Origin: a virus
Lineage: Duplodnaviria; Caudoviricetes
DNA length: 30,275 nucleotides
Virus record (IMG/VR): IMGVR_UViG_3300020045_007984
Coordinates: 1 to 30,275 of that record
Strand: one strand, 5' to 3'
How positions within the stretch are numbered: the first letter of the stretch is position 1; the number at the start of each line of letters is the position of its first letter. Below are positions 3,806 to 19,589 of the stretch, one piece after another. The notes beneath the pieces are model-generated. The model was not told the origin of the DNA and did no database searches. It worked only from the letters and a program-made list of their open reading frames with translations. Both the position numbers and the translations under genes were made by a program.

Positions 3806-3925
3806 TTACTTCCGAAATTTCCAAGTTGCAACCAGCCAAAAAAGAAATAAGCAAAGGATAGCGAATATTGCAATGCCTGTAATAACTGTAAATGGTTGTC
3901 GGCTTAGTGATTGGGTTAGTGTCAT
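3806..3925 (-). CDS. Small single-pass membrane protein (39 aa, not in ORF track)
   Basis: MTLTQSLSRQPFTVITGIAIFAILCLFLFWLVATWKFRK*. Its ATG overlaps the TGA of 3922-4224 (ATGA). Confidence 0.6.
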   Translation of the reverse strand: MTLTQSLSRQPFTVITGIAIFAILCLFLFWLVATWKFRK

Positions 3926-4224
3926 AATAAATATTCTTTAATTGGTTTTTCGTTTAATATTGCTTGTGTTTTTCTCCATGAAGCAATCTTTTCTTTAGCT
4001 TCTTCTAAATTTCTAGCATTATCTCTAAATTTCCAAACATTAATCCGCTTATGATTTAAAAAATTTAAACCTATTGAACACCAAAAGCATAAACAGGAAA
4101 TTGTTCTTAAAGTTCGTATTTCAAACCTCGAAGAATACTCCACTATTTTATATTGTGTAGTATCGCTATTGAATTGAAAAGGAATATCTTCTTCTTTGAT
4201 AGGTATAATATTGTCTTTTGCCAT
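3922..4224 (-). CDS. Hypothetical protein, antisense insertion
   Basis: 100-aa ORF tightly coupled to its neighbours, with no competing + strand ORF. Confidence 0.65.
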   Translation of the reverse strand: MAKDNIIPIKEEDIPFQFNSDTTQYKIVEYSSRFEIRTLRTISCLCFWCSIGLNFLNHKRINVWKFRDNARNLEEAKEKIASWRKTQAILNEKPIKEYLL

Positions 4225-4227
4225 GCT

Positions 4228-4431
4228 TTAATCTTTAAATATTGTAATATCATTTGAATTATAAACTATATTGTTATCCGAGAAGATAAATATTACCGGA
4301 ATAAGCAAAATAGTTTTACTAGTTTTGAATGCAACCGTATCAACCATTACATTCTTAATCTTAATCTTACCAGTTACCTTTTTTCTGTCTCCGTAATAAC
4401 AGAAGCGCTTGCCTATCAGGTCAGTCATCAT
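4228..4431 (-). CDS. Hypothetical protein, antisense insertion
   Basis: 67-aa ORF with ATGA overlap to the upstream ORF. Confidence 0.6.
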   Translation of the reverse strand: MMTDLIGKRFCYYGDRKKVTGKIKIKNVMVDTVAFKTSKTILLIPVIFIFSDNNIVYNSNDITIFKD

Positions 4432-4625
4432 AAATCAGTTGGGTTAACGTGTTCGATTGATTTAATTTCGCTAACAGATATAATTGACCAATCATCAATA
4501 CCGCTATGTATTTTTACATTAATTACTTTTTCAAATTCCAAAAACATACAATATAAAAATCTACAATTTTGCTTTAACCCATGTTGGTAAAATGTTGTAG
4601 GTTCATTAAAAGTTAATTTTAACAT
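4428..4625 (-). CDS. Hypothetical protein, antisense insertion (likely start MLKLTFNEP at 4625)
   Basis: The track ORF is 4428-4664, but its start lies inside a hairpin. ATG 4625 has an A-rich leader typical of Bacteroidota. Confidence 0.55.
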   Translation of the reverse strand: MLKLTFNEPTTFYQHGLKQNCRFLYCMFLEFEKVINVKIHSGIDDWSIISVSEIKSIEHVNPTDL

Positions 4626-4649
4626 TTTTCTTTTCTCTTTAAATAAATA

Positions 4650-4680
4650 AGGCCGCTCAACCATCCGATTGAAACGGCCT
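4650..4680 (-). terminator. GC-rich hairpin upstream of the antisense cassette
   Basis: On the - strand: AGGCCGTTTCAA-TCGGATGG-TTGAGCGGCCT followed by TATTTATTT. Confidence 0.5.
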
Positions 4681-5661: not shown

Positions 5662-5975
5662 AAGCATTCGCATTCGGTGAACTAAGGATTTCTTTGACCG
5701 AATGGCAAATGTTAAGTCCTAGAGATTATGTAAATACCTGCGTGGGCTATCAAAGCCAATTAAAACGTGAGGAATTTTACCAAAGGGAACTTAATTATAA
5801 TGTCGTAAGGGGGTGGGCAAACCCAAAAGATTTACCGAGCAAGTATAGCTTTTGGCCTATAAAGGGTGAGACTATTCCTAAAGCGAATACTTTAACCAAA
5901 ACAGATATTAACCGTTTAGACGGTCTATTTAGATCATTAAGCAAGAAAGATGGCCAATCCACAACTAACGGTTGA
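5637..5975 (+). CDS. gpT portion of the G-T chaperone fusion
   Basis: ORF 5694-5975 is in the -1 frame relative to gpG and is open back to the slippery site. The G-x-L-x-I-x-x-x-E-W-x-x-L-S-P-R motif is typical of gpT regions. Confidence 0.82.
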   Translation, partial: EETDWDEVKAFAFGELRISLTEWQMLSPRDYVNTCVGYQSQLKREEFYQRELNYNVVRGWANPKDLPSKYSFWPIKGETIPKANTLTKTDINRLDGLFRSLSKKDGQSTTNG

Positions 5976-7971
5976 AATAAGCGCAAAGATTGACGGATTA
6001 CGTGACGCTTTCAATAAAGCCGTTAAGGAGATCAAAGGTCTTGATGCGAATACAAAAAAATCTTTATCATCCATTGATAACGGCTTTGAAAGATTAGCAA
6101 ACGATATTGATAAGTCAATGTCTAAAGCCGCTGCTTCGACAAGTAAAGCCAGCAGCACGATAACTAAAAACCTAGCAACGGCAGCCAATGCAACGGCAAA
6201 AGCTGGGCAGGGCATATCCGTAGGAAGCAATCAAGCTGCTAATTCACTTCAAAATTTAGGAAGGGTTGCCCAAGATGCTCCATTTGGTTTTATTGGCATT
6301 CAAAATAACTTAAACCCATTATTAGAAAGTTTCCAAAGGTTAAGAGCAGAAAGCGGTTCGAATAGCGCAGCTTTTAAAGCATTGGGGCAATCATTAATTG
6401 GTCCTGCTGGATTAGGCCTTGCGCTTAGTTTAGTTAGTTCTGGCGTGTTATTATACCAGCAATACCAACAACGAGCTAATAAGACTGCCGAGAATGCCAA
6501 AAAGGTCACAGAGGATTATATCGCAACTCTTGAAACTTTAAGGGGCGTTAATTTAAGGGGTACAGAAAATGCCCAAAAAGAACTAACCGATTTAAGATTG
6601 CTGTATAATGCTTACCAAAATGCAAACCTACCTTTAACAGCAAGAAAAGAAGCGTATTCTGAATTACAAAAACAATACCCTAGTTATTTTGGGAATATAG
6701 CATTTGAGAAAGAAGCTACAAACAAAACAACTACGGCATACAATGAGCTATCTAACGCTATCATTGCAACCGCTAGAGCTCGTGCTGCTTCAGACAAGAT
6801 AACCAAAAATGAAACTCGTAAACTAGAGAATGAACAAAAGCAGATTGATCTACAGAAGGAGCAAATAAAATTAAGGGCGCAACAAGCAAAGATTGCTAAT
6901 GCTGCTGTAGAACAGATTTCGACATCAACAAGAGAGGGAACTGGTTTAGCTGCTGCAACAAGAAGTAATAGTATTCAAGGCAAGATAAACGAAACTATTA
7001 AGGCGACTAATGCTTTAAAAACCGACACCAATTTACTAGATGCCGAAAACGCAAGATTAGTTGGATATGTAAATGAGCAATTAGCAAAAGGGGCTAAAAT
7101 AATAGGAGGCTTCGGAGGCGGTGGCGCAGTAGCCAAAACAAAAGATATTTTCAAGGAAGGAGTTTCAAAGTTATTAATTGCTGATCCAACGATTAGAATA
7201 GGAGTTGATTTAGATACAAGTGCTTTAAAAGTAAAATTCAAGGAATTAGCGCCTATAGTTGATGAAAGTTTAGCACAGCTTAGATACCAGTTTGATGTTA
7301 CCGATGATCAGATTAAAAGTTTCATTGAAAATACAGGAACTAACGCAGCTAATTACTTAAAGGTTCTGCAAGATTATAACAACGGATTAAGCCAATCAAT
7401 AAGTTCAGGAGCAGTTTCTACGCTTGCTGGATTAGGCTCTGCTATTGGCGAAGCATTTGCTAATGGCGCCAATGTAGTTCAAGCGGCAGCGGGTAGTATA
7501 TTGGGTTCAATTGGATCAATTCTTGTAAAATTTGGCGAGCTCACTTTGGCTGCAGGAGTTGCTGCCACTGCATTAGGGAAGGCACTATCTCAGCCACTAA
7601 ATCCAGCTAGTGCTGCTTTAGCTATTGGCGCTGGTGTTGCTCTAATAGCCATCGGATCTGCTGTAGGGGCATTTAGTAAAAATTTAGGGAGCGGTAGTGG
7701 TGGTTCTGGTGGCAGTTCGGTAAAACCTATTAGGGGATTTGCTACTGGTGGACAAAATATTTCTGGTGGTTTAGCTGTTGTTGGCGAGCATGGTAGGGAA
7801 ATTATAAACGTGCCAAACGGTAGCGATATTTTGCCAACACCACAAACACAACGAATTTTAGGAGGCAATAACGGCGGCAATGTAAACATCATTCCAGAAA
7901 TAGGTTTTAGCATGGATCAATTTGTTATCAAATTTAGACAAGCTGAAAGAAGATTGGGGAGGTCTAACTAA
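5950..7971 (+). CDS. Tape measure protein
   Basis: 673 aa, Ala/Gly-rich and helical, with L-x-V-x-I-x-A N-terminus, VAQDAPFGFIGIQNNL, and C-terminal FATGG...AVVGEHGREII. Confidence 0.92.
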   Translation: MANPQLTVEISAKIDGLRDAFNKAVKEIKGLDANTKKSLSSIDNGFERLANDIDKSMSKAAASTSKASSTITKNLATAANATAKAGQGISVGSNQAANSLQNLGRVAQDAPFGFIGIQNNLNPLLESFQRLRAESGSNSAAFKALGQSLIGPAGLGLALSLVSSGVLLYQQYQQRANKTAENAKKVTEDYIATLETLRGVNLRGTENAQKELTDLRLLYNAYQNANLPLTARKEAYSELQKQYPSYFGNIAFEKEATNKTTTAYNELSNAIIATARARAASDKITKNETRKLENEQKQIDLQKEQIKLRAQQAKIANAAVEQISTSTREGTGLAAATRSNSIQGKINETIKATNALKTDTNLLDAENARLVGYVNEQLAKGAKIIGGFGGGGAVAKTKDIFKEGVSKLLIADPTIRIGVDLDTSALKVKFKELAPIVDESLAQLRYQFDVTDDQIKSFIENTGTNAANYLKVLQDYNNGLSQSISSGAVSTLAGLGSAIGEAFANGANVVQAAAGSILGSIGSILVKFGELTLAAGVAATALGKALSQPLNPASAALAIGAGVALIAIGSAVGAFSKNLGSGSGGSGGSSVKPIRGFATGGQNISGGLAVVGEHGREIINVPNGSDILPTPQTQRILGGNNGGNVNIIPEIGFSMDQFVIKFRQAERRLGRSN

Positions 7972-11041: not shown

Positions 11042-12171
11042 TGGCAGATAATACTGGACTTTTTAACGGATTTATAACCGCGGTAAAACAAGCTATTACG
11101 CAAAAGAATACTATTAACAGTATAGACCCTGTAGATGTTGGTGATAGCATAACCAATCTCGCGTCACTTTTAGTCCCTATACTGAATACCATAAACCAAT
11201 TTGCAACTACAAGCGGGGGAAATGCTCCGTCTAATGGCAATGGGGTGGATGGTGATGAGTATTTCCAAACCGGCCCAGAACTAAAGGTTTGGCGTAAGGT
11301 TTCTGGTGTTTGGGTTTTAAAAGCAACGCTTGATTTAGGTATAAATGTAGTTGATGGAAATATCAGCGTTCAATCTAGGGTTAGCGGTTTTACGTTAACT
11401 GCAACAGCAGGCCAATGGGGTATTAACAATACCATCCATACAAAAGCAATACAAGATCAGTTTACGATTGATGCAGCAAACGCTAGTTTAGACCGTATCG
11501 ATGCTGTGTTCGGTAAAGAAGATAATACCGTTCATTATGTTGCTGGTACGGCTTCTGCTAATCCGGACACAACAAAACCCGTTACGCCAGCCAATGAAAT
11601 TATAATCACATACGTTTATGTCCCGGCTTCATCAAGTGGTGGTTTGCCTTACATTGCAGATAGCAATGCCAATAGTAATTTAGAGCAAACACAATCACTA
11701 TTGGCTGGTGTAGATAATCCAGACAACAGCGATGGTAATAATGGAGATTTTTATTACCAGTTTGACGGCGCCTCTACTTTAACGTTCTGGCAAAAGATTA
11801 ATGGCGTTTGGGTTAGTGTTTTGGTTTATGCACCGGAGGGCGGTTCCTCTGGCTCATCCAGAATACCATATCTTGACAGAACTGCAAATTCAAACGGGGA
11901 GATAGATTTAAGCGGAGAAAGCAACTTACCAAGTTATCCGACTATATCAGTTTACAATGCAGTTACAGGGGAGTCGCTGACTACATTTCAGTATAATGCT
12001 TTACAAGGGAATGCTAGATATGGCATTCTATACAGCTTAGAGCCTTTACAAACGTATAACATTTACATGATAGGTGAGACTGGCGGAGGGGGGACAACAC
12101 CTAACCCACCAACAAACGGTATAGTTGACGATACAAATAAAACATTCACTTTTACAGGAGGGGTAATATAA
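11041..12171 (+). CDS. Tail fibre/fibre-anchor protein
   Basis: Two GxDGD-[EF]-Y...WxKxxGVW repeats typical of phage fibres, plus an LDRIDAV motif. Confidence 0.7.
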   Translation: MADNTGLFNGFITAVKQAITQKNTINSIDPVDVGDSITNLASLLVPILNTINQFATTSGGNAPSNGNGVDGDEYFQTGPELKVWRKVSGVWVLKATLDLGINVVDGNISVQSRVSGFTLTATAGQWGINNTIHTKAIQDQFTIDAANASLDRIDAVFGKEDNTVHYVAGTASANPDTTKPVTPANEIIITYVYVPASSSGGLPYIADSNANSNLEQTQSLLAGVDNPDNSDGNNGDFYYQFDGASTLTFWQKINGVWVSVLVYAPEGGSSGSSRIPYLDRTANSNGEIDLSGESNLPSYPTISVYNAVTGESLTTFQYNALQGNARYGILYSLEPLQTYNIYMIGETGGGGTTPNPPTNGIVDDTNKTFTFTGGVI

Positions 12172-13559
12172 TGGCATTTAGACCACTAACGGCACACGAA
12201 TTTAGATACAGAACAGGAGGAGTTTGGTCTGCTTGGACTGCGTGTACGTCTGGTAACTGTACTGATTTGGGTGGCGGACAATATCGCATAAACGGACTTG
12301 ACTATAATATCGCCATTGGCGATTTACAAGTTAGGGTAGCTGCTTCGGGAGGTAATCCACCGAGCGCAGTACTTACTAACACGGTGGCTTTTACGGCAAA
12401 TATTCCTATTCCGATAGATACAATACTAGATGATGATTTTGCAAGATCTTCTTTAGGAGATGATTATACAACAGAGGGAGATGCAGATTTTATAACAGAC
12501 GGTTCATCTTTAATAGTTAGTGGAGGCTCTGGTTCTTTTTCAGATTTAATAAAATATAACGCTTACACGAGTTGTCTTGAAAAGCACACTATAAAATTAA
12601 GATTTTTAGTAACTACAAAGGATTCTACATCCTATGGAATTGGAATAGGTGTTAGAAGTATTAACGTTTCTGACTATAGAAGTTTGCTTGGTAGAATTGA
12701 TTTGTCTACTGGACCAACCAGCGGAAAGGTTATGTTGTCTACAACTAATAATTCAACATCTGATTACACTCAGCACGTTATTAGTGATGATGCTGTTGTT
12801 TTTTCGGAGGGTGACACTTTAGAAATTAACATACAAAGAGTTTATAATATTGTTACGATAACTGCTTTTAATGTAGCTTTGCCCTCTACAATAGTACCAG
12901 CTACATTTGACTTTAGTTTAGGAATATCATCTCCAATATATGTCCCTCATAATACCGGACAATTTGCAATACATACTTTTGGAGGGGAGCAAAATGTTAC
13001 TAATTTTTTCGTTGGATCTGGGGCTTTAAAGAATATCAACATACTGGGTATTGGTGATAGTATCACGTATGGGTTGTTTTCTGAAACTTTAGAACAAAGA
13101 TTTCTAAACGTTTTATTTAACTCGTCTGAAAAGTCAAACGATAGTAATGGGGGTGGGTCAGATAAAACAGCAGAGGTACTGGCTAGAATAGACGAGATAT
13201 TATTAATAAATCCAAAATACGCACTGTTAATGATAGGTGGTAATGATATATTTTTTGGTATTTCAAATGAAATTTATGAGTCCAATTATATTAATATAGT
13301 GTCCATATTGGAAAATTCTGGAATAACCGTTGTACATTGTTTACCGACTCCTAGAAATTCACCTAATGAACAGCCACTAAGAGATTTTATATTGTCACAA
13401 TATTCGTCAGGCAAAATAGTAGATACCTGGACTGCTCTTTTAGGCGATGGTACGGGATTAAATACTATTTATGACAGCGGTGACGGTACACACCCAAATT
13501 CAGATGGACATGCTAAAATCGCAGATCAAATCACAATAGATGCGCCAGAAATATTATAA
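12171..13559 (+). CDS. Tail-associated SGNH/GDSL hydrolase with lectin-like middle domain
   Basis: SGNH blocks: GDSITYG (I), G in GGGSDKT (II), IGGND (III), DGTHPNSDGH (V). Confidence 0.85.
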   Translation: MAFRPLTAHEFRYRTGGVWSAWTACTSGNCTDLGGGQYRINGLDYNIAIGDLQVRVAASGGNPPSAVLTNTVAFTANIPIPIDTILDDDFARSSLGDDYTTEGDADFITDGSSLIVSGGSGSFSDLIKYNAYTSCLEKHTIKLRFLVTTKDSTSYGIGIGVRSINVSDYRSLLGRIDLSTGPTSGKVMLSTTNNSTSDYTQHVISDDAVVFSEGDTLEINIQRVYNIVTITAFNVALPSTIVPATFDFSLGISSPIYVPHNTGQFAIHTFGGEQNVTNFFVGSGALKNINILGIGDSITYGLFSETLEQRFLNVLFNSSEKSNDSNGGGSDKTAEVLARIDEILLINPKYALLMIGGNDIFFGISNEIYESNYINIVSILENSGITVVHCLPTPRNSPNEQPLRDFILSQYSSGKIVDTWTALLGDGTGLNTIYDSGDGTHPNSDGHAKIADQITIDAPEIL

Positions 13560-13563
13560 ATAG

Positions 13564-15153
13564 ATGAAATTAAAACTAACCATATTACTATTGCTCGCTT
13601 GTATTGGAGTGATGGCTCAAGCTCCCTATCCTATTCCATCTACTAATATTGTAATGGGTCAAAACACATCAAGCACAGTCTTGATAAAGGGTTCAGTAAA
13701 GATCAACGGCATTTCAACGGGTAGCACAGACAGTCTTGTGACGATATTTAACGGGGTGTTGAGGAAAGTACCCCAATCACAGTTGATGAGCGTCTACACC
13801 GCAGGATATGGGCTTCTAACGACAGGTAACCAGTTTAGGGTCGACACATCGATACTCGTTAACAAAACCTATATAACCGCATTAAACGCAACGTTACCCC
13901 ATTTAGCAACAAACAATACATACACTGGTAATCAGCAGATTTCTGGAGCTGCAAATATTTACATTACGGGTAATTACGGTTTCTCGGCTCCCGTTCAATA
14001 CACGACTTTGATAGCTCCAGAACGGATAAGGATTGGCGGAATGCAAGATGTTTTTGATATTGCTCCCTCATCAATCAAACTTACCAATGGCCCATCTGGT
14101 AACATAACTTTATTACATAACAATATATCAGCAACAAGAACGGTTAACTGGCCAAATAGGGATGGTGTACTAGTGGTTGGTGGTGACCTTACTGATGGTT
14201 TAGCAACCAAACAGAATACATTAGTTTACGATGCATTACCTGCTAATGGAAGTACCAATTCTGTAAACAGTAACGGTATATTTCAGGCCATACAAACATC
14301 GGCTTCAGCTCAATCAGCTACTTACATTCAAAATCAATCCGCTACACCTCAAACCGCTACGTTCAATATCTCAGGACTAGCCAAAGCAGGAAGTAGTAGT
14401 ATAACGGGAAATAGTGACGTAGGAGGTTCGCAAACGGTAGCAGCTACAAGTACATTGCAGAATGTTGTTGTGAATAATAGGATAGGTGTTGGAGGTAGTC
14501 CAAATACTGGGATAGAATATATTTCTGCAACTAACGGGATAGACGGGATTAGAGTTTCAAGAACAACCGTGCCAACACAATATATACAGATAGACGTTGG
14601 AACTGGAAGTGATCACAGATTAAATTCAACTGGTTCTGGAAAAGGGTTAATCATAAGAAATAATAATACAGGTGTAGCTTTGGGGAACACAACGGATGGT
14701 ATAACTTTCCAAGTACCATCTGCAACAACAAATACTACGACACCCGCCCTTACTATTTCTAGTGGTAATTCCCCTGTTGTAGCAATAATAAATAAAGGCA
14801 CGCAAGCCAATGCGCCAACGGCAGCGAATGATTTGTTCAGACTAACGGATGCGAAATCAAACAAGTTAAACACAGCGGCAAGCGCAACAATAACTACAGC
14901 ACAATTACTGGCCAATAACGGAACATTTTACATATACGTTGATGCAAGTGGAGGCGCAAGAACAATTACTTTGCTAAGTGTAGCGGCTCATTTGGGTAAG
15001 ACAGTTATCATTCAAAAAACTGACTCTAGTGCCAATACTGTTACGGTAAGCGGTGGAGCAGTAAATATCAATCAAGCTACAACATACCCTTTAACAACAC
15101 AAAATGCCAGCGTAGCAATTGCAGAGGACGGTACTCAATTTAGGGCTAGGTAA
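13564..15153 (+). CDS. Fibre-like beta-rich protein with predicted Sec signal peptide
   Basis: MKLKLTILLLLACIGVMA|Q signal and a Thr/Gly/Asn-rich body. Fibre-like motifs include YTAGYGL, LATKQNTL and C-terminal DASGGARTITL...GKTVIIQKTDSSANTVTV. Confidence 0.75.
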   Translation: MKLKLTILLLLACIGVMAQAPYPIPSTNIVMGQNTSSTVLIKGSVKINGISTGSTDSLVTIFNGVLRKVPQSQLMSVYTAGYGLLTTGNQFRVDTSILVNKTYITALNATLPHLATNNTYTGNQQISGAANIYITGNYGFSAPVQYTTLIAPERIRIGGMQDVFDIAPSSIKLTNGPSGNITLLHNNISATRTVNWPNRDGVLVVGGDLTDGLATKQNTLVYDALPANGSTNSVNSNGIFQAIQTSASAQSATYIQNQSATPQTATFNISGLAKAGSSSITGNSDVGGSQTVAATSTLQNVVVNNRIGVGGSPNTGIEYISATNGIDGIRVSRTTVPTQYIQIDVGTGSDHRLNSTGSGKGLIIRNNNTGVALGNTTDGITFQVPSATTNTTTPALTISSGNSPVVAIINKGTQANAPTAANDLFRLTDAKSNKLNTAASATITTAQLLANNGTFYIYVDASGGARTITLLSVAAHLGKTVIIQKTDSSANTVTVSGGAVNINQATTYPLTTQNASVAIAEDGTQFRAR

Positions 15154-15186
15154 AGATATTTTATAATTTAAACTTTAATCGACACC

Positions 15187-15774
15187 ATGAAAAAACTTTT
15201 ACTAATCATTTTATTGGCAGTCTCAAGTTTCGCCTACGGGCAGAACATAACAGTTGACGAGCCTTTTATGAGAGTTGTTAGGACGGCACCTCTCACTTTA
15301 AGCACATCTTGGCAAACAGTAGTATATTCCGCTACGGCATCAAGCTACACATCAAATTCCTACGCCATAGACCCTGTTACGGGAAGCAATTACGTATGGT
15401 ACGACACGGGAACCAACAAATTCATGTTTGTCGGGCAGTATAACAAGATTGCCATCATTCAGGCGCAATTCAGTACGACAAGTTCGTCAATACTTACAAG
15501 GGGCACCATACAGATGAGAATGGTAGTCCCTAACGCAGGTGTAGGGGGAGGTGACCTATATCTGCCAGCTCCAGAATTGGGAGGTCTATGCGATGTCCAT
15601 GAGGTAACGATTATAGCTGGAACGGCAATGAGCAGTAGACCCATAGTAATACAGCTACCAGTAGGCTTGGGAGTTCGTACAAACGGTTTTTATTTTCAAG
15701 TGAGGCTAAGTAATGCTTTGGTTGGAACAGCTACTTTAAACGGCTCTACAGTAACAATAAGTACAAACTATTAA
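15187..15774 (+). CDS. Secreted beta-sandwich hypothetical protein
   Basis: MKKLLLIILLAVSSFAYG|Q signal. The mature part has alternating beta strands like fibre-tip or C1q-like domains (fold is inference). Confidence 0.75.
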   Translation: MKKLLLIILLAVSSFAYGQNITVDEPFMRVVRTAPLTLSTSWQTVVYSATASSYTSNSYAIDPVTGSNYVWYDTGTNKFMFVGQYNKIAIIQAQFSTTSSSILTRGTIQMRMVVPNAGVGGGDLYLPAPELGGLCDVHEVTIIAGTAMSSRPIVIQLPVGLGVRTNGFYFQVRLSNALVGTATLNGSTVTISTNY

Positions 15775-15785
15775 AATTAAATATT

Positions 15786-15956
15786 ATGAAAAAAGAAGTA
15801 CAAGAAAACGAGCAGGAAGTAAAAGAGAAGGTTCAAGACGGAACTCCACAAACACCTAATTGCGGAGAGAAGCCAACGCATTCAGGCGGTGACGGTCAAG
15901 GGGAATGGGTATGCAATTGGAGCACAAATAAATGGGAATGGCACCCATCCGCTTAG
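15786..15956 (+). CDS. 56-aa peptide with charged leader and Cys/Trp-rich C-terminus (not in ORF track)
   Basis: MKKEVQENEQEVKEKVQDGTPQTPNCGEKPTHSGGDGQGEWVCNWSTNKWEWHPSA*. It has an A/T-rich leader, fills the gap between genes, and its stop is 1 nt before the next ATG. Confidence 0.78.
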   Translation: MKKEVQENEQEVKEKVQDGTPQTPNCGEKPTHSGGDGQGEWVCNWSTNKWEWHPSA

Positions 15957-15957
15957 T

Positions 15958-16326
15958 ATGTTAAGAGAATACGGATTAAAGATTGTGTTCTTTGTTTACC
16001 TAGTTTGGTATAGTTTTATGATTTACGTAGATATTACACATAAAGCTATACCATTCTCTGTTTACAATCCTTTATTGGGACTTAGTTTTGGTTGGCTGAC
16101 TATTGGTACGGTTTGGGTGTTTAAAAAATGTATGGATGATTGCAACATACGTTATTTAGATTGGTGCATAACGATGATAATTTTACGTGTTACTATAATA
16201 TTCATAAGGGATTTGGGGTTTGATGAACCTAGATATTTAGCTAGTTTTACGTTAGGCGGAATGATATTGTTTTTTATTTATAAGTTAATAATGAAGCGGA
16301 GCGCAGAGAGGTACTTTAATTTTTAA
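15958..16326 (+). CDS. Polytopic membrane protein (about 4 TM, 122 aa)
   Basis: Start reassigned to ATG 15958 (MLREYGLKIVFFVYLVW...). Four hydrophobic segments and a basic C-terminal tail. Confidence 0.75.
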   Translation: MLREYGLKIVFFVYLVWYSFMIYVDITHKAIPFSVYNPLLGLSFGWLTIGTVWVFKKCMDDCNIRYLDWCITMIILRVTIIFIRDLGFDEPRYLASFTLGGMILFFIYKLIMKRSAERYFNF

Positions 16327-16363
16327 ACCTTTTGATTATCTTTATAAAAAAACAGCCTATAGG

Positions 16364-16843
16364 ATGAACTCTACTTTGAATAATATGTTATGGTTTATGG
16401 CAATAATGGAAGAACTTTACGATAATAAGGTGGTCAATTCCTTGGTTAAATTTATGGGCACTCTACTCGTTGTATCAGGGCTTTTTAGCGGATTAAGTTC
16501 TGATGATGCATTATTTAGATTGGGGTGCGCAGCTTCAATATTATTTGGTTTCCTATTGCAGACTACTCATTTAAGTAGAAGGAAAAAATTAAGCAAATGG
16601 CTTATATTTTCAAACGTTGTTACTACGAGCTCAATCGTGTTCCTTGCATTCCTTTTTTGGAATGCAAAGTATGGTAACGATTATGGGGATTGGTTTATGT
16701 TGTACCTTTTTTTATGCTCATTTACATCGATCGGATTATCCGAGATTATATTTAATCTTACAAAAAAAGGCGCTAACGAGTATTTGTCAATACTGGCACG
16801 AAAATTTCTATCTGAGACAGATAAAAAGGAGGATGAAGCATGA
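16364..16843 (+). CDS. Membrane protein (3-4 TM), holin candidate
   Basis: Hydrophobic helices with a highly charged C-terminus (ETDKKEDEA), upstream of the endolysin. Several in-frame Met residues near the start. Confidence 0.55.
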   Translation: MNSTLNNMLWFMAIMEELYDNKVVNSLVKFMGTLLVVSGLFSGLSSDDALFRLGCAASILFGFLLQTTHLSRRKKLSKWLIFSNVVTTSSIVFLAFLFWNAKYGNDYGDWFMLYLFLCSFTSIGLSEIIFNLTKKGANEYLSILARKFLSETDKKEDEA

Positions 16844-17202
16844 CTTTTGACCACTGGTTAAATTACGCAACGATAATTTTAATAATGGGATTTTCAAGTC
16901 TTATTGTTTATTTCCTAGCAGGGGCAAAATACTCGCTTCACAAAGCATTATTCAGGGCTTTATTTATGTGGGATTTCTGGTATGTGAAATGGTTTTGTAA
17001 AAACAAAATATACCTTTGGTCATTTAGTTTGTTGATATTACTTATCTGTACTGAGCTAACATTGATTACTAAATTTAGCGAGGACAGTATATTTCAAAAG
17101 CCCAGGTTTATGTTCTTGGTAAGCCCTTTGTTATGGGCATCTTTATTTGGAACTTTCTCTTGGTTGATACTTTACTATAATAGGACAAAGAACATCGATT
17201 AG
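16840..17202 (+). CDS. Membrane protein (about 3 TM), lysis-associated candidate
   Basis: ATGA-coupled to the previous gene; three Trp/Phe-rich hydrophobic stretches. Confidence 0.65.
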   Translation: MTFDHWLNYATIILIMGFSSLIVYFLAGAKYSLHKALFRALFMWDFWYVKWFCKNKIYLWSFSLLILLICTELTLITKFSEDSIFQKPRFMFLVSPLLWASLFGTFSWLILYYNRTKNID

Positions 17203-17206
17203 TTAC

Positions 17207-17238
17207 AAACCCTCGTTAATTCGGGGGTTTTGCTTTTT
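17207..17238 (+). terminator. Intrinsic terminator between the membrane genes and the endolysin
   Basis: AAACCCTCG-TTAATT-CGGGGGTTT followed by TGCTTTTT. Confidence 0.75.
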
Positions 17239-17260
17239 ACAAGTATTTACACTACCTTCG
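17229..17260 (+). promoter_or_regulatory. Near-consensus Bacteroidota promoter for the endolysin
   Basis: TTTG (17229-17232), 20-nt spacer, TACCTTCG (one mismatch). ATG follows after a 3-nt gap. Confidence 0.55.
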
Positions 17261-17263
17261 AAT

Positions 17264-17719
17264 ATGGCAATACTTGGAGCTAACAGCAAGAAAAAACTAA
17301 TCGGTGTTCATCCTAATTTAGTTAAGGTAATTGAAACCGCAATAATAGATACACAAATTGATTTTTCTATTACCAGCGGCGTTAGAACTACAAAAGAACA
17401 GCAAGCTCTTTACGCTCAAGGTAGAACTACAAAAGGCAATATTGTAACTAAAGTTGATGGCGTAATTAAAAAGTCTAATCACCAACCAAAATCGGACGGT
17501 TACGGTCATGCTATAGATTTTGTGCCGTATATAAATGGTAAAATTGATTGGAATGATATTAAAGCGTTTATTACTATTGCTGGTCATATCAAAAAAACAG
17601 CTGATAAATTAGGTGTTGCAGTACGTTGGGGCGCAGATTGGGACAGGGACGGAATAACAAAAGCGCAAGGCGATAAAGACGAGAATTTTGTTGATATACC
17701 ACATTTTGAGTTAGCTTAA
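17264..17719 (+). CDS. Endolysin, peptidase M15 family (L-Ala-D-Glu endopeptidase-like)
   Basis: LIGVHPNL, ITSGVRT..EQQALYAQGRT, S-N-H...GHAIDF, RWGADW and DIPHFEL supply the H/D/H zinc ligands of M15C. Confidence 0.93.
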   Translation: MAILGANSKKKLIGVHPNLVKVIETAIIDTQIDFSITSGVRTTKEQQALYAQGRTTKGNIVTKVDGVIKKSNHQPKSDGYGHAIDFVPYINGKIDWNDIKAFITIAGHIKKTADKLGVAVRWGADWDRDGITKAQGDKDENFVDIPHFELA

Positions 17720-17744
17720 TTATGCAACAGATATAATTGAAGTA

Positions 17745-17858
17745 ATGCCAGACGAGTTCTACCAAAATATCAGGCACATATCTTCGTTTAAGAACAGTAC
17801 CGAATACGAGAAATATTTACAAATAGAAATAGAGAAATGGCAGAAAAGAAAATCTTAG
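17745..17858 (+). CDS. Small hypothetical peptide (37 aa)
   Basis: MPDEFYQNIRHISSFKNSTEYEKYLQIEIEKWQKRKS* fills the gap after the endolysin. Confidence 0.35.
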   Translation: MPDEFYQNIRHISSFKNSTEYEKYLQIEIEKWQKRKS

Positions 17859-18118
17859 TCGACAACAAAGCCGTTCCTGTCGAAGAAACTAAAACAAAAT
17901 TTGGTATTGGGCAGATAGGCAATACAACTCCGATATGGGCTAAAAACGCTTTTAGGGTTGCGTTATATGTTGCAACAGCTTTAGTATTGGTAACGCAAAC
18001 TATAACTGAAATTCCAGAACCTATAAAAGTATCTATAGCTAAATATGCATTAGAAGCTATTACGTTAATTCATGCTTTAACAAAGTTATTTGGGGTTCAA
18101 TTAGATGAAAATAAGTAA
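17837..18118 (+). CDS. Small membrane protein, holin-like
   Basis: TPIWAKNAFR followed by two hydrophobic or amphipathic helices; lies in the lysis cluster. Confidence 0.6.
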   Translation: MAEKKILVDNKAVPVEETKTKFGIGQIGNTTPIWAKNAFRVALYVATALVLVTQTITEIPEPIKVSIAKYALEAITLIHALTKLFGVQLDENK

Positions 18119-18200
18119 AATAAACAGTCCGATATTCAATTGGTTGTGGTTTATATTGGCCATGATACTTTTTGCATCGGGATTAATAGCAATACTTTAA
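18105..18200 (+). CDS. 31-aa single-pass membrane peptide
   Basis: MKISKINSPIFNWLWFILAMILFASGLIAIL* fills the gap between 18118 and 18211. Confidence 0.45.
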   Translation: MKISKINSPIFNWLWFILAMILFASGLIAIL

Positions 18201-18210
18201 CTAAAACACA

Positions 18211-18621
18211 ATGGCAAAAACAGTATTCGGAAAAGCTCTAGAAGCTATCCTATCATTATTCAAAGAGAACTGGTTTGAGTTTATCACCAAACTTTGGAAA
18301 AAAATCCCTAAAGAACTGCAGGAAAAACTTGTTGACATCGTTGAGATTGTTGAGCGTATTAAAACCTACGTTGACAGCCCTATTGTTGATTTCATTGCTT
18401 CGGTTATTCCTGGCGATAAGGATGATAAAATTATCTCAACACTTCGGGCAATATTGCGCTCGATAATCGAGGAACTTAAATTGATTGATACACCGTCAAG
18501 CGAATTGAAAGCAACGGATTTACAGTCAATCGCCACTAGGTTAACTCAAGAGGTTACCGGATTACCTTTTGGACAGGCCGCGATAACTATTGAGAACGCC
18601 TACCAGAATTATACGGCGTAG
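18211..18621 (+). CDS. Helical protein with amphipathic N-terminus, last gene of the lysis cluster
   Basis: FGKALEAILSLFKENWFEFITKLWKKI is amphipathic; a terminator follows. Confidence 0.75.
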   Translation: MAKTVFGKALEAILSLFKENWFEFITKLWKKIPKELQEKLVDIVEIVERIKTYVDSPIVDFIASVIPGDKDDKIISTLRAILRSIIEELKLIDTPSSELKATDLQSIATRLTQEVTGLPFGQAAITIENAYQNYTA

Positions 18622-18625
18622 AATT

Positions 18626-18666
18626 ATCCCCCACCAGACGGTTTTGTTTAGTGGGGGATTTTTTTT
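18626..18666 (+). terminator. Terminator at the convergence of the late and leftward operons
   Basis: ATCCCCCAC...GTGGGGGAT stem plus T-tract; overlaps the stop of the convergent ORF. Confidence 0.75.
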
Positions 18667-18836
18667 AGGTATGAACCATCAATAATAACGGGACTATTTT
18701 CTTCAAATTGTATAATATAATCGTTATCTCCCCAATCGTACTTTTCAATTACAGTTACTTCTAAATCATTGTAAGGGTGAAAGTATTTTGATTTTACAAT
18801 AGCAATGTCTCCTTTTTTAAATTTCATCTTTCTCAT
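18648..18836 (-). CDS. Small hypothetical protein (KOW/SH3-like MKFKKGD start)
   Basis: MKFKKGDIAIVK pattern is common in small phage beta-barrel proteins. Confidence 0.65.
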   Translation of the reverse strand: MRKMKFKKGDIAIVKSKYFHPYNDLEVTVIEKYDWGDNDYIIQFEENSPVIIDGSYLKKIPH

Positions 18837-18877
18837 CTTCTTTTTAAGGTTTAAGCCGATCGCAATGGATAGGGGAG

Positions 18878-19075
18878 TTAAAATGTGTTAGCTGACAATA
18901 GATGTTTATTTTTTCTTAGAATACACTTTACATCAACATAATCTATACTGTTACTTACAGAAAAATATCGTTTAGCTTCATTCCTATTAACGGCTTTAAA
19001 GTCTAAATAATTAGCGTGAAAAGGATCTGTTTCCCATTCTGATTTACTTACGCAGATGTAATATTTCTTCTCCAT
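18878..19075 (-). CDS. Hypothetical protein
   Basis: 65-aa ORF in the co-oriented array. Confidence 0.6.
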   Translation of the reverse strand: MEKKYYICVSKSEWETDPFHANYLDFKAVNRNEAKRYFSVSNSIDYVDVKCILRKNKHLLSANTF

Positions 19076-19082
19076 ATCTAAT

Positions 19083-19589
19083 TTAATTTTTAGGCTGTTG
19101 TAGTCTTGGATGCCAACCTTTTATTATGTTGTGTAAGCTATCTTTTAACCTATAAAAAGATTTATTTTCACAACTTGCTTCTACATCAATTTCATCAGAT
19201 ATTAATTCCCATATATCTTCTGCTTTTTTCTGTTCTCCACTCACCCACCCATCACTAACATTCAGTTGCTCTAAAACTTTGGGTAAAACATATTGTGGTA
19301 TTATCATTGCTCCATTGCAAACTTTACATTGTTGATACAATGAACTTACGCAACCATCTGCTAAAATTTTGCCCGTTCCATTACAAATGGGACAGCATTG
19401 GTATGGAACTGTTTTCACCGCCTGTTGTATAGATGCAGATTGTGATTGTTGGGCTAGTTCGTAGCCTTTGATGAATGCAGAACGTTCCATTTCAACAACT
19501 TGACCTGTTTTATATGCAAATCCAGTTGGGTGGTTAGGCAATGGGTATATATCCCGAGCCAATTGCTCTATATCTTTTTTATCTTTCAT
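19083..19589 (-). CDS. Hypothetical protein with a DnaJ-type CxxCxGxG zinc-finger pair
   Basis: CPICNGTG...CKVCNGAM motifs. Confidence 0.7.
   Translation of the reverse strand: MKDKKDIEQLARDIYPLPNHPTGFAYKTGQVVEMERSAFIKGYELAQQSQSASIQQAVKTVPYQCCPICNGTGKILADGCVSSLYQQCKVCNGAMIIPQYVLPKVLEQLNVSDGWVSGEQKKAEDIWELISDEIDVEASCENKSFYRLKDSLHNIIKGWHPRLQQPKN

Follow-up and report, generated by a model that had tools for sequence, protein, structure and literature searches.

What does a predicted 56-aa phage microprotein with two Cys residues do directly ahead of a small membrane protein gene and upstream of an endolysin? The gene pair lies at positions 15786–16326 of a virus record of 30,275 bases, which is ~76% complete by estimate and is called the window here in its full length. 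The pair is real, rare and undescribed, and it falls outside every family tested. Literature searches among open-access articles turned up neither a description of the pair nor, for Bacteroidota phages, any functional work on how lysis is controlled. The window encodes an HK97-type capsid, head-tail connectors, a tail tube and a tape-measure-like gene, so its phage is siphovirus-type. The nearest named phages by capsid are Flavobacterium, Cellulophaga and Leeuwenhoekiella phages (~27–29% identity), from which we infer a Bacteroidota host, likely Gram-negative. Elsewhere in the window, a 462-aa late gene (12171–13559) has a GDSL/SGNH esterase domain at its C-terminus (E 4e-15) and likely encodes a tail-associated deacetylase. 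Three small ORFs (100, 67 and 78 aa) occupy an AT-rich patch on the reverse strand (3922–4664) between tail-completion and tail-tube genes and have no Pfam match.

The microprotein ORF (15786–15956, + strand) encodes Cys26 and Cys43, Trp41, Trp45, Trp50 and Trp52, a single GG at residues 34–35 and a charged N-terminus, all as described in an earlier reading made from the sequence only. The exact protein is present as a called gene in a public protein collection, where it is a singleton. No signal peptide was found, and the highest 19-residue hydropathy is −1.13. AlphaFold predicts strands at residues 39–44 and 49–54 (15900–15947, + strand; pLDDT ~82–86 in that part), in agreement with the C-terminal beta-hairpin first proposed, which is plausible on this model. 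The microprotein model retrieved nothing at E ≤ 0.001 in a fold search, ESM Atlas gave no usable match, and the best PDB sequence match to the peptide alignment (A5) had an E value of 0.65. A single base separates the TAG stop of the microprotein from the ATG of the membrane gene (15958–16326, + strand), an arrangement that the first reading had right. A GTG at 15889 was rejected as the membrane gene start, because the 122-aa protein begins where its relatives begin, at M-x-R-E-x-G (ATG 15958).

DNA was readable for two further members of the membrane protein family, on phage contigs of 75.6 and 76.6 kb; the same two contigs are present in both collections (L001, from genome G001, and L002, from genome G002). 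A peptide lies directly upstream of the membrane gene in both, which supports the coupling of the two genes seen in the first reading. The L001 homologue has 47 aa (5858–6001) and overlaps the membrane gene by one base (gap −1), and the L002 homologue has 48 aa (5843–5989) with an 11-nt gap. Common to all three peptides are the first Cys, EKPT, W-[IV]-C and KW, which define a conserved core from Cys26 to Trp50 in the window peptide (15861–15935, + strand). The N-terminus and the loop between the two Cys residues differ from phage to phage. An upstream ORF of the form C...WxC...WxW had been predicted for homologues; both loci have the Cys residues and W-[IV]-C but not the WxW tail, as Trp45 and Trp52 are not conserved and the relatives keep W29 and W36 alone. 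A tryptophan zipper was also proposed for the hairpin. Designed tryptophan zippers have two cross-strand Trp-Trp pairs, whereas the window peptide has Trp at three of the four pattern positions and Cys at the fourth, and its relatives have only two Trp residues. By register, the second Cys lies opposite the second conserved Trp in the predicted hairpin of all three peptides.

In alignments to the L001 peptide the window peptide outscores 20000 shuffles with 3 exceptions, and in alignments to the L002 peptide it does so with 268 exceptions out of 20000. For the core only, the exceptions number 33 (L001) and 207 (L002). A profile built from the two relatives did not single out the window peptide, which ranked third among the 548 six-frame segments of the window with an E value of 7.1. 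This copy is thus divergent, and peptide homology is argued from position and motif. Identical degenerate residues are encoded by different codons at 6/18, 8/12 and 6/21 positions in the three peptide pairs. Between the window and its relatives, synonymous differences affect three of the four EKPT codons, and second codon positions vary least in every pair. Such codon changes with residues kept point to protein-level selection on the peptide. The tight spacing (−1 to 11 nt from stop to start in all three loci) and the varying length (47–56 aa) and N-terminus would suit a translated leader that couples ribosomes to the membrane gene and has a functionless product. This is very unlikely, as costly residues (two Cys, two Trp and EKPT) are kept while their codons change and second positions vary least.

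Signs of further copies are indirect. In P0024, an N-terminal extension that was called wrongly can be read in a shifted frame as W-[IV]-C-x-x-G-x-W, a reading open to none of 2478 genomic controls and to 47 of 100000 shuffles. It is strongly compatible with an upstream peptide, and would make a fourth case. The extensions of P0013 and P0017 would also fit a peptide upstream; that of P0012 is weak and that of P0007 uninformative. Two motif scans of IMG/VR used patterns derived from the two known loci and recovered these loci only, with the motif in frame in 2 of 51 stretches in the first scan and a downstream membrane ORF in 2 of 59 in the second. Neither scan found a full-motif peptide away from a membrane gene. 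IMG/VR holds three loci with DNA in all, two of them in related phages. Searches with a single pair protein by word index returned the protein itself alone, and viral scans with the membrane protein, the next membrane gene (gene 3), the upstream gene or P0011 gave no confirmed locus. Bacterial-genome scans confirmed 0 of 138 candidates with the capsid and 0 of 23 with alignment A4. Annotated phages and plasmids gave no significant match, the lysis end of Flavobacterium phage snusmum9-1 has no such pair, two low-share DNA runs did not cover it, and no RNA run was listed as containing the sequence. Separately, ORFs of ~40–43 aa ending in W-V-C-x-G-G-R-W were seen in L071, L101 and L123; they look hairpin-like and have neither EKPT nor a downstream membrane ORF.

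The 122-aa membrane protein belongs to an unnamed family. AlphaFold predicts the four helices that had been read from the sequence, at residues 2–27, 33–57, 64–85 and 91–120 (pLDDT 78.6). A phmmer search against 1.84 billion representatives returned 8 matches, namely the protein itself, five full-length relatives (27–34% identity) and two spurious hits, and a profile search added ten further members. The window protein has at least 19 full-length relatives, none of the listed ones named, and the family comprises about two dozen proteins overall. The two spurious hits, P0004 and P0009, were discarded as short repeat matches in long proteins. In a 20-row alignment, of which 13 rows form one clade and are not independent, G6, S43, D61, N63 and R77 are invariant. 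E4, C70, G87 and Y119 are present in 19/20 rows, C58 and C62 in 17/20, and at least two of Cys58, Cys62 and Cys70 in 19/20. The invariant D61 and N63 belong to a D-D-C-N motif (residues 60–63; 16135–16146, + strand) in the loop that joins helix 2 to helix 3, which is predicted to be cytoplasmic.

Mean K+R counts reach 2.05, 4.85 and 1.75 at the termini and in loop 2–3, whereas the remaining loops average 0.75 and 1.05. This distribution of positive charge suggests that both termini are inside the cell (N-in/C-in). Under this topology the N-terminal, D-D-C-N and C-terminal motifs, with the conserved E4, G6, D61, N63 and Y119, fall on the predicted cytoplasmic face, and S43 and R77 lie within helices. 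Foldseek with the membrane model found nothing at E ≤ 0.001 in PDB or BFVD. The best VIA match (Z 8.7, rmsd 3.9, 113 aligned) was to helices of Cys-loop receptors, in the range of generic helical bundles, and comparison with solved structures, including for likeness to holins, gave generic four-helix matches alone. A PDB sequence search with alignment A7 had 0 matches, and ESM Atlas gave unnamed clusters at 0.89, as a lead only. A24 prepilin peptidases have two catalytic Asp residues, one of them in G-x-G-D. A sub-cut-off Pfam match to this family (E 0.0026) in 1 of 19 members was rejected; D89 is not conserved.

The sequence-only reading saw in the pair a candidate signalling or effector system that could tune lysis timing, sense phage density or exclude superinfection, outside described families and without a dedicated exporter or modifying enzyme. 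The last two points held. Neither protein has a match above cut-off in Pfam, PHROGs, NCBIfam or PADLOC, and Pfam scans of 50 window proteins, 77 of 82 G001 ORFs and 80 of 82 G002 ORFs found neither exporter nor maturase and no ABC or radical-SAM match. The leader-GG-core precursor was not supported: GG occurs in one of three peptides, where it lies between the conserved Cys residues, and no GG leader is conserved. A double-glycine bacteriocin or RiPP was rejected on the same count and for lack of a C39 exporter or modifying enzyme in the phage genomes. Six-frame domain searches of the three phage genomes (G001 and G002 complete, window 76%) detected no C39 peptidase (PF03412), histidine-kinase ATPase (PF02518), response regulator (PF00072), tyrosine integrase (PF00589) or serine resolvase (PF00239); a host-encoded exporter or receptor may take the place of such partners. 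AgrB (PF04647) was found in none of the three, with a weak control in which 0 of 14 control genomes passed the cut-off, and Pfam matched AgrB in 0 of 19 members of the four-helix family.

The AgrD/AgrB likeness was examined against AgrB of Staphylococcus, which has a His77-Cys84 pair and six helices according to passages of PMC10482373. As far as those passages go, the systems are alike in placing a 40–60-aa Cys peptide beside a polytopic membrane protein with conserved Cys. They differ in that the present protein has four helices and no His-Cys dyad; no His is invariant in its family, and at both His-rich columns the residue in the window protein is Tyr. The present peptide has two Cys residues rather than one and no conserved amphipathic leader, and the phage genomes encode no kinase or response regulator.

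A precursor that is cyclised or exported by the four-helix protein in the manner of AgrD/AgrB, or released at lysis, could still signal phage density. Gene order, tight coupling and two conserved Cys residues, which could close a ring only outside the cytoplasm, would fit. So would the partner's Cys58, Cys62 and Cys70 (at least two in 19/20) with its invariant S43, D61, N63 and R77, and the variable inter-Cys loop, as a specificity region might be. Against this, AgrB needs its His and Cys and six helices (passages of PMC10482373) and no His column is conserved here, no amphipathic or GG leader is kept, AgrB, C39, kinase ATPase and response regulator domains are absent from all three genomes, and no lysogeny gene was found for a signal to control. 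This explanation is unlikely. A more specific variant for phages of Gram-negative Bacteroidota, also improbable and slightly more so, has the microprotein exported by its four-helix partner or released at lysis and then closed outside the cell into a hairpin locked by a disulfide; neighbouring infected cells would sense it and delay lysis, and the inter-Cys loops would be phage-specific dialects.

Arbitrium was the other comparison drawn. The arbitrium AimP propeptide carries a secretion signal. Like arbitrium and other RRNPP systems, the locus has a small phage peptide gene adjacent to a partner gene. It differs in having a membrane partner rather than an intracellular receptor, no signal peptide, no integrase or resolvase gene found in the two complete genomes and the 76% complete window, and a host that is likely Gram-negative, and the Pfam scans contained no RRNPP receptor. 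Density sensing of the arbitrium kind is unlikely, and the secreted-signal reading of the pair as a whole is weak.

The neighbourhood bears on the remaining explanations. As first described, two more membrane genes and a terminator follow the pair in the window. Gene 3 (16364–16843, + strand) encodes a 159-aa protein with four hydrophobic segments and a weak match to the holin family phrog_1350 (E 0.017); the protein at L001 6387–6821, after the L001 pair, is 27% identical to it (E 8e-13). Gene 4 (16840–17202, + strand) encodes a 120-aa protein with three hydrophobic segments and has an L001 homologue (31% identity, E 3e-11). The run ends in an intrinsic-terminator-like hairpin (17207–17240, hairpin 17207–17230, + strand), with equivalents at L001 7194–7219 and L002 7723–7748. 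No Rfam family was found in window 15000–18700. An M15-family endolysin follows (17264–17719, + strand; PF13539 E 1.3e-5, phrog_465 E 7e-48), and the pair is upstream of the endolysin in all three phages, as it was first placed. The three endolysins belong to three families: M15, Amidase_2 plus SH3, and the muramidase PF11860. In L002, four other membrane genes stand behind the pair (best E 0.004 against genes 3 and 4), and a 412-aa gene precedes the endolysin.

Other small membrane genes follow the endolysin in all three phages. The one in the window (17837–18118, + strand) encodes a 93-aa protein with no family match and is possibly the conventional holin, judged from position and hydropathy. 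The L001 (8534–9085) and L002 (9961–10497) phages have homologous proteins after the endolysin (37% identity), each with a lipoprotein-like segment at the N-terminus and a hydrophobic one at the C-terminus. They resemble unimolecular spanins and have weak spanin matches; no homologue was detected in the window. The 7-mer GCCTATA occurs within ~35 nt downstream of the four-helix stop in all three loci (window 16355–16361, L001 ~6378–6384, L002 ~6383–6389) and is probably a relic of shared descent, with a regulatory site as the alternative. In two DNA runs, short contigs of low depth agree nearly exactly with the beginning of gene 3 (window 16300–16640). One of them (depth 2.7) matches from 16336 onward with 73 differing letters upstream, and this single contig hints that gene 3 can sit behind other upstream sequence.

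Genomes G001 and G002 have crAss-type muzzle domains and share 33 of 82 ORFs. Only 4 of 41 window ORFs of at least 90 aa are matched in G001, three of them the cassette membrane genes, and 5 of 41 in G002. Since G002 keeps the pair but has no clear homologues of genes 3 and 4, the pair is the minimal unit rather than the four-gene block. By these comparisons it is a mobile module that has moved between siphovirus-type and crAss-muzzle-type phages.

Morons are transcribed as units of their own and spread by horizontal transfer. The cassette may be moron-like, with membrane proteins that remodel the envelope against superinfection or serve as an abortive-infection effector, and with a peptide that is their cytoplasmic inhibitor or trigger. 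Movement of the block between unrelated phage types, a terminator closing the run in all three phages and small membrane genes after each endolysin agree with such a unit. A Bacteroidota −7 box (TAHHTTTG, the consensus given in part of PMC6847099) also precedes the peptide start in two of the three loci, by 5 nt in L001 and 29 nt in L002, against a background of 0.35–0.43 per kb. The window itself argues otherwise: no such box occurs on the + strand between 12974 and 17011, and the peptide gene begins 11 nt past the preceding late gene. PADLOC had no match for 14 cassette proteins. As neither integrase nor resolvase was found in the two complete relatives, lysogenic conversion is not indicated, though lytic phages exclude superinfection too. 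A moron-like role, the main rival of the explanation put forward below, is possible, if somewhat unlikely.

Upstream of the pair, secreted-looking genes are found in all three phages and are followed in turn by the membrane-gene run, the terminator-like hairpin and the endolysin. Immediately before the window pair is a gene for a 195-aa protein with a signal-peptide-like N-terminus (15187–15774, + strand); a 104-aa gene intervenes in L001. These fibre-like late genes have signal-peptide-like N-termini followed by Gln (window 13564–15153 and 15187–15774; L001 3710–5517; L002 2370–5804), and the product of window 13564–15153 is 31% identical over 234 aa to that of G002 16537–19260. The cassette could serve late virion maturation and handle these proteins, whose route to the virion or cell surface passes through the membrane, with no role in lysis timing. 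The upstream genes differ among the phages, and no cassette protein has homology to secretion or chaperone families; this explanation is quite unlikely.

The explanation that we put forward, tentatively and as somewhat less than probable, is that a cytoplasmic beta-hairpin microprotein binds its membrane partner and tunes lysis in the manner of a soluble antiholin. The peptide would stay in the cytoplasm and bind the conserved inner face of the four-helix protein. Expression would be late, the partner would belong to an accessory membrane complex with the downstream holin-like proteins, and binding would tune the time of host lysis. More speculatively, the two Cys residues of the peptide and Cys58, Cys62 and Cys70 of the partner could form a disulfide or a metal site, making the contact redox- or metal-sensitive. 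Several points favour this proposal. The peptide precedes the membrane gene in both readable relatives, the extension of P0024 allows its motif, and cassette membrane genes make up three of the four window ORFs matched in G001. The pair is kept upstream of the endolysin despite three endolysin families, the peptide has no membrane or signal segment, as expected of a soluble regulator, and the conserved E4, G6, D61, N63 and Y119 of the partner map to its predicted cytoplasmic face. Soluble antiholins of T4 and P1 are precedents.

Other points stand against an antiholin-like role. The pair matches no holin or antiholin family in PHROGs, Pfam or NCBIfam, and the sole holin hint, that to phrog_1350, belongs to gene 3. 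In all three phages a terminator stands between the cassette and the endolysin; with the small membrane genes after the endolysin as possible real holins, the cassette is perhaps unrelated to lysis. The L002 genes behind the pair have no detectable homology to genes 3 and 4, and a 412-aa gene precedes the endolysin there. The case is also limited to three loci, two of them in related phages. The position of the pair could also have been kept by co-transfer with the neighbouring secreted genes, given the similarity between the window and G002 fibre-like genes.

Known lysis systems offer partial parallels to the proposed antiholin-like pair. Holin T of phage T4 has one helix and a periplasmic domain. 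In the working model, as in T4, a small soluble phage protein acts on the cytoplasmic part of a membrane protein and affects lysis; T4 antiholin RIII binds the cytoplasmic domain of T, according to passages of PMC11413866. There is no sequence match to RIII or T, the present partner is predicted to have four helices and lacks a large periplasmic domain, the peptide has 47–56 aa and two Cys residues, and the genes here are adjacent and coupled. For LydB of phage P1, no membrane domain is predicted and transcription is separate from that of the endolysin, as stated in part of PMC9025707. Within that account, LydA/LydB resembles the present pair in that one operon unites a membrane gene with a non-membrane regulator and other holin-like genes lie elsewhere. 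It differs in that here the soluble gene comes first and encodes a microprotein, holin activity is putative, and PHROGs and Pfam give no family match. Gordonia phages carry up to four unrelated, poorly shared holin-like membrane genes of 1–4 helices beside the endolysin (abstract of PMC9671378). Their hosts are Gram-positive, and that abstract mentions no coupled Cys/Trp microprotein.

The pair is a small portable unit ahead of three different endolysins in siphovirus-type and crAss-muzzle-type phages. Should the peptide tune lysis by way of its partner, it would be a new microprotein class among the few soluble antiholins and a handle on burst timing. Were it exported, phage peptide signalling would extend beyond Bacillota, a much larger result. 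The rarity of the family (three IMG/VR DNA loci, ~two dozen proteins) limits its reach.

Several other features were seen in the two related phages. Just beyond the lysis genes, G001 encodes the Gabija anti-defence protein Gad1 (G001:C1:7423-8397, E 2.6e-90). It also encodes a Thg1 tRNA-His guanylyltransferase (G001:C1:70041-70769, E 1.6e-25) and a reverse transcriptase (RVT_1, E 7.5e-17; G001:C1:66251-68366, L063 6251-8366) beside similar-looking genes of 156 and 157 aa, which is possibly a diversity-generating retroelement. In G002, three glycosyltransferase-2 genes and an FkbM methyltransferase gene lie between terminase-like and portal-like genes (G002:C1:63231-66834, L067).
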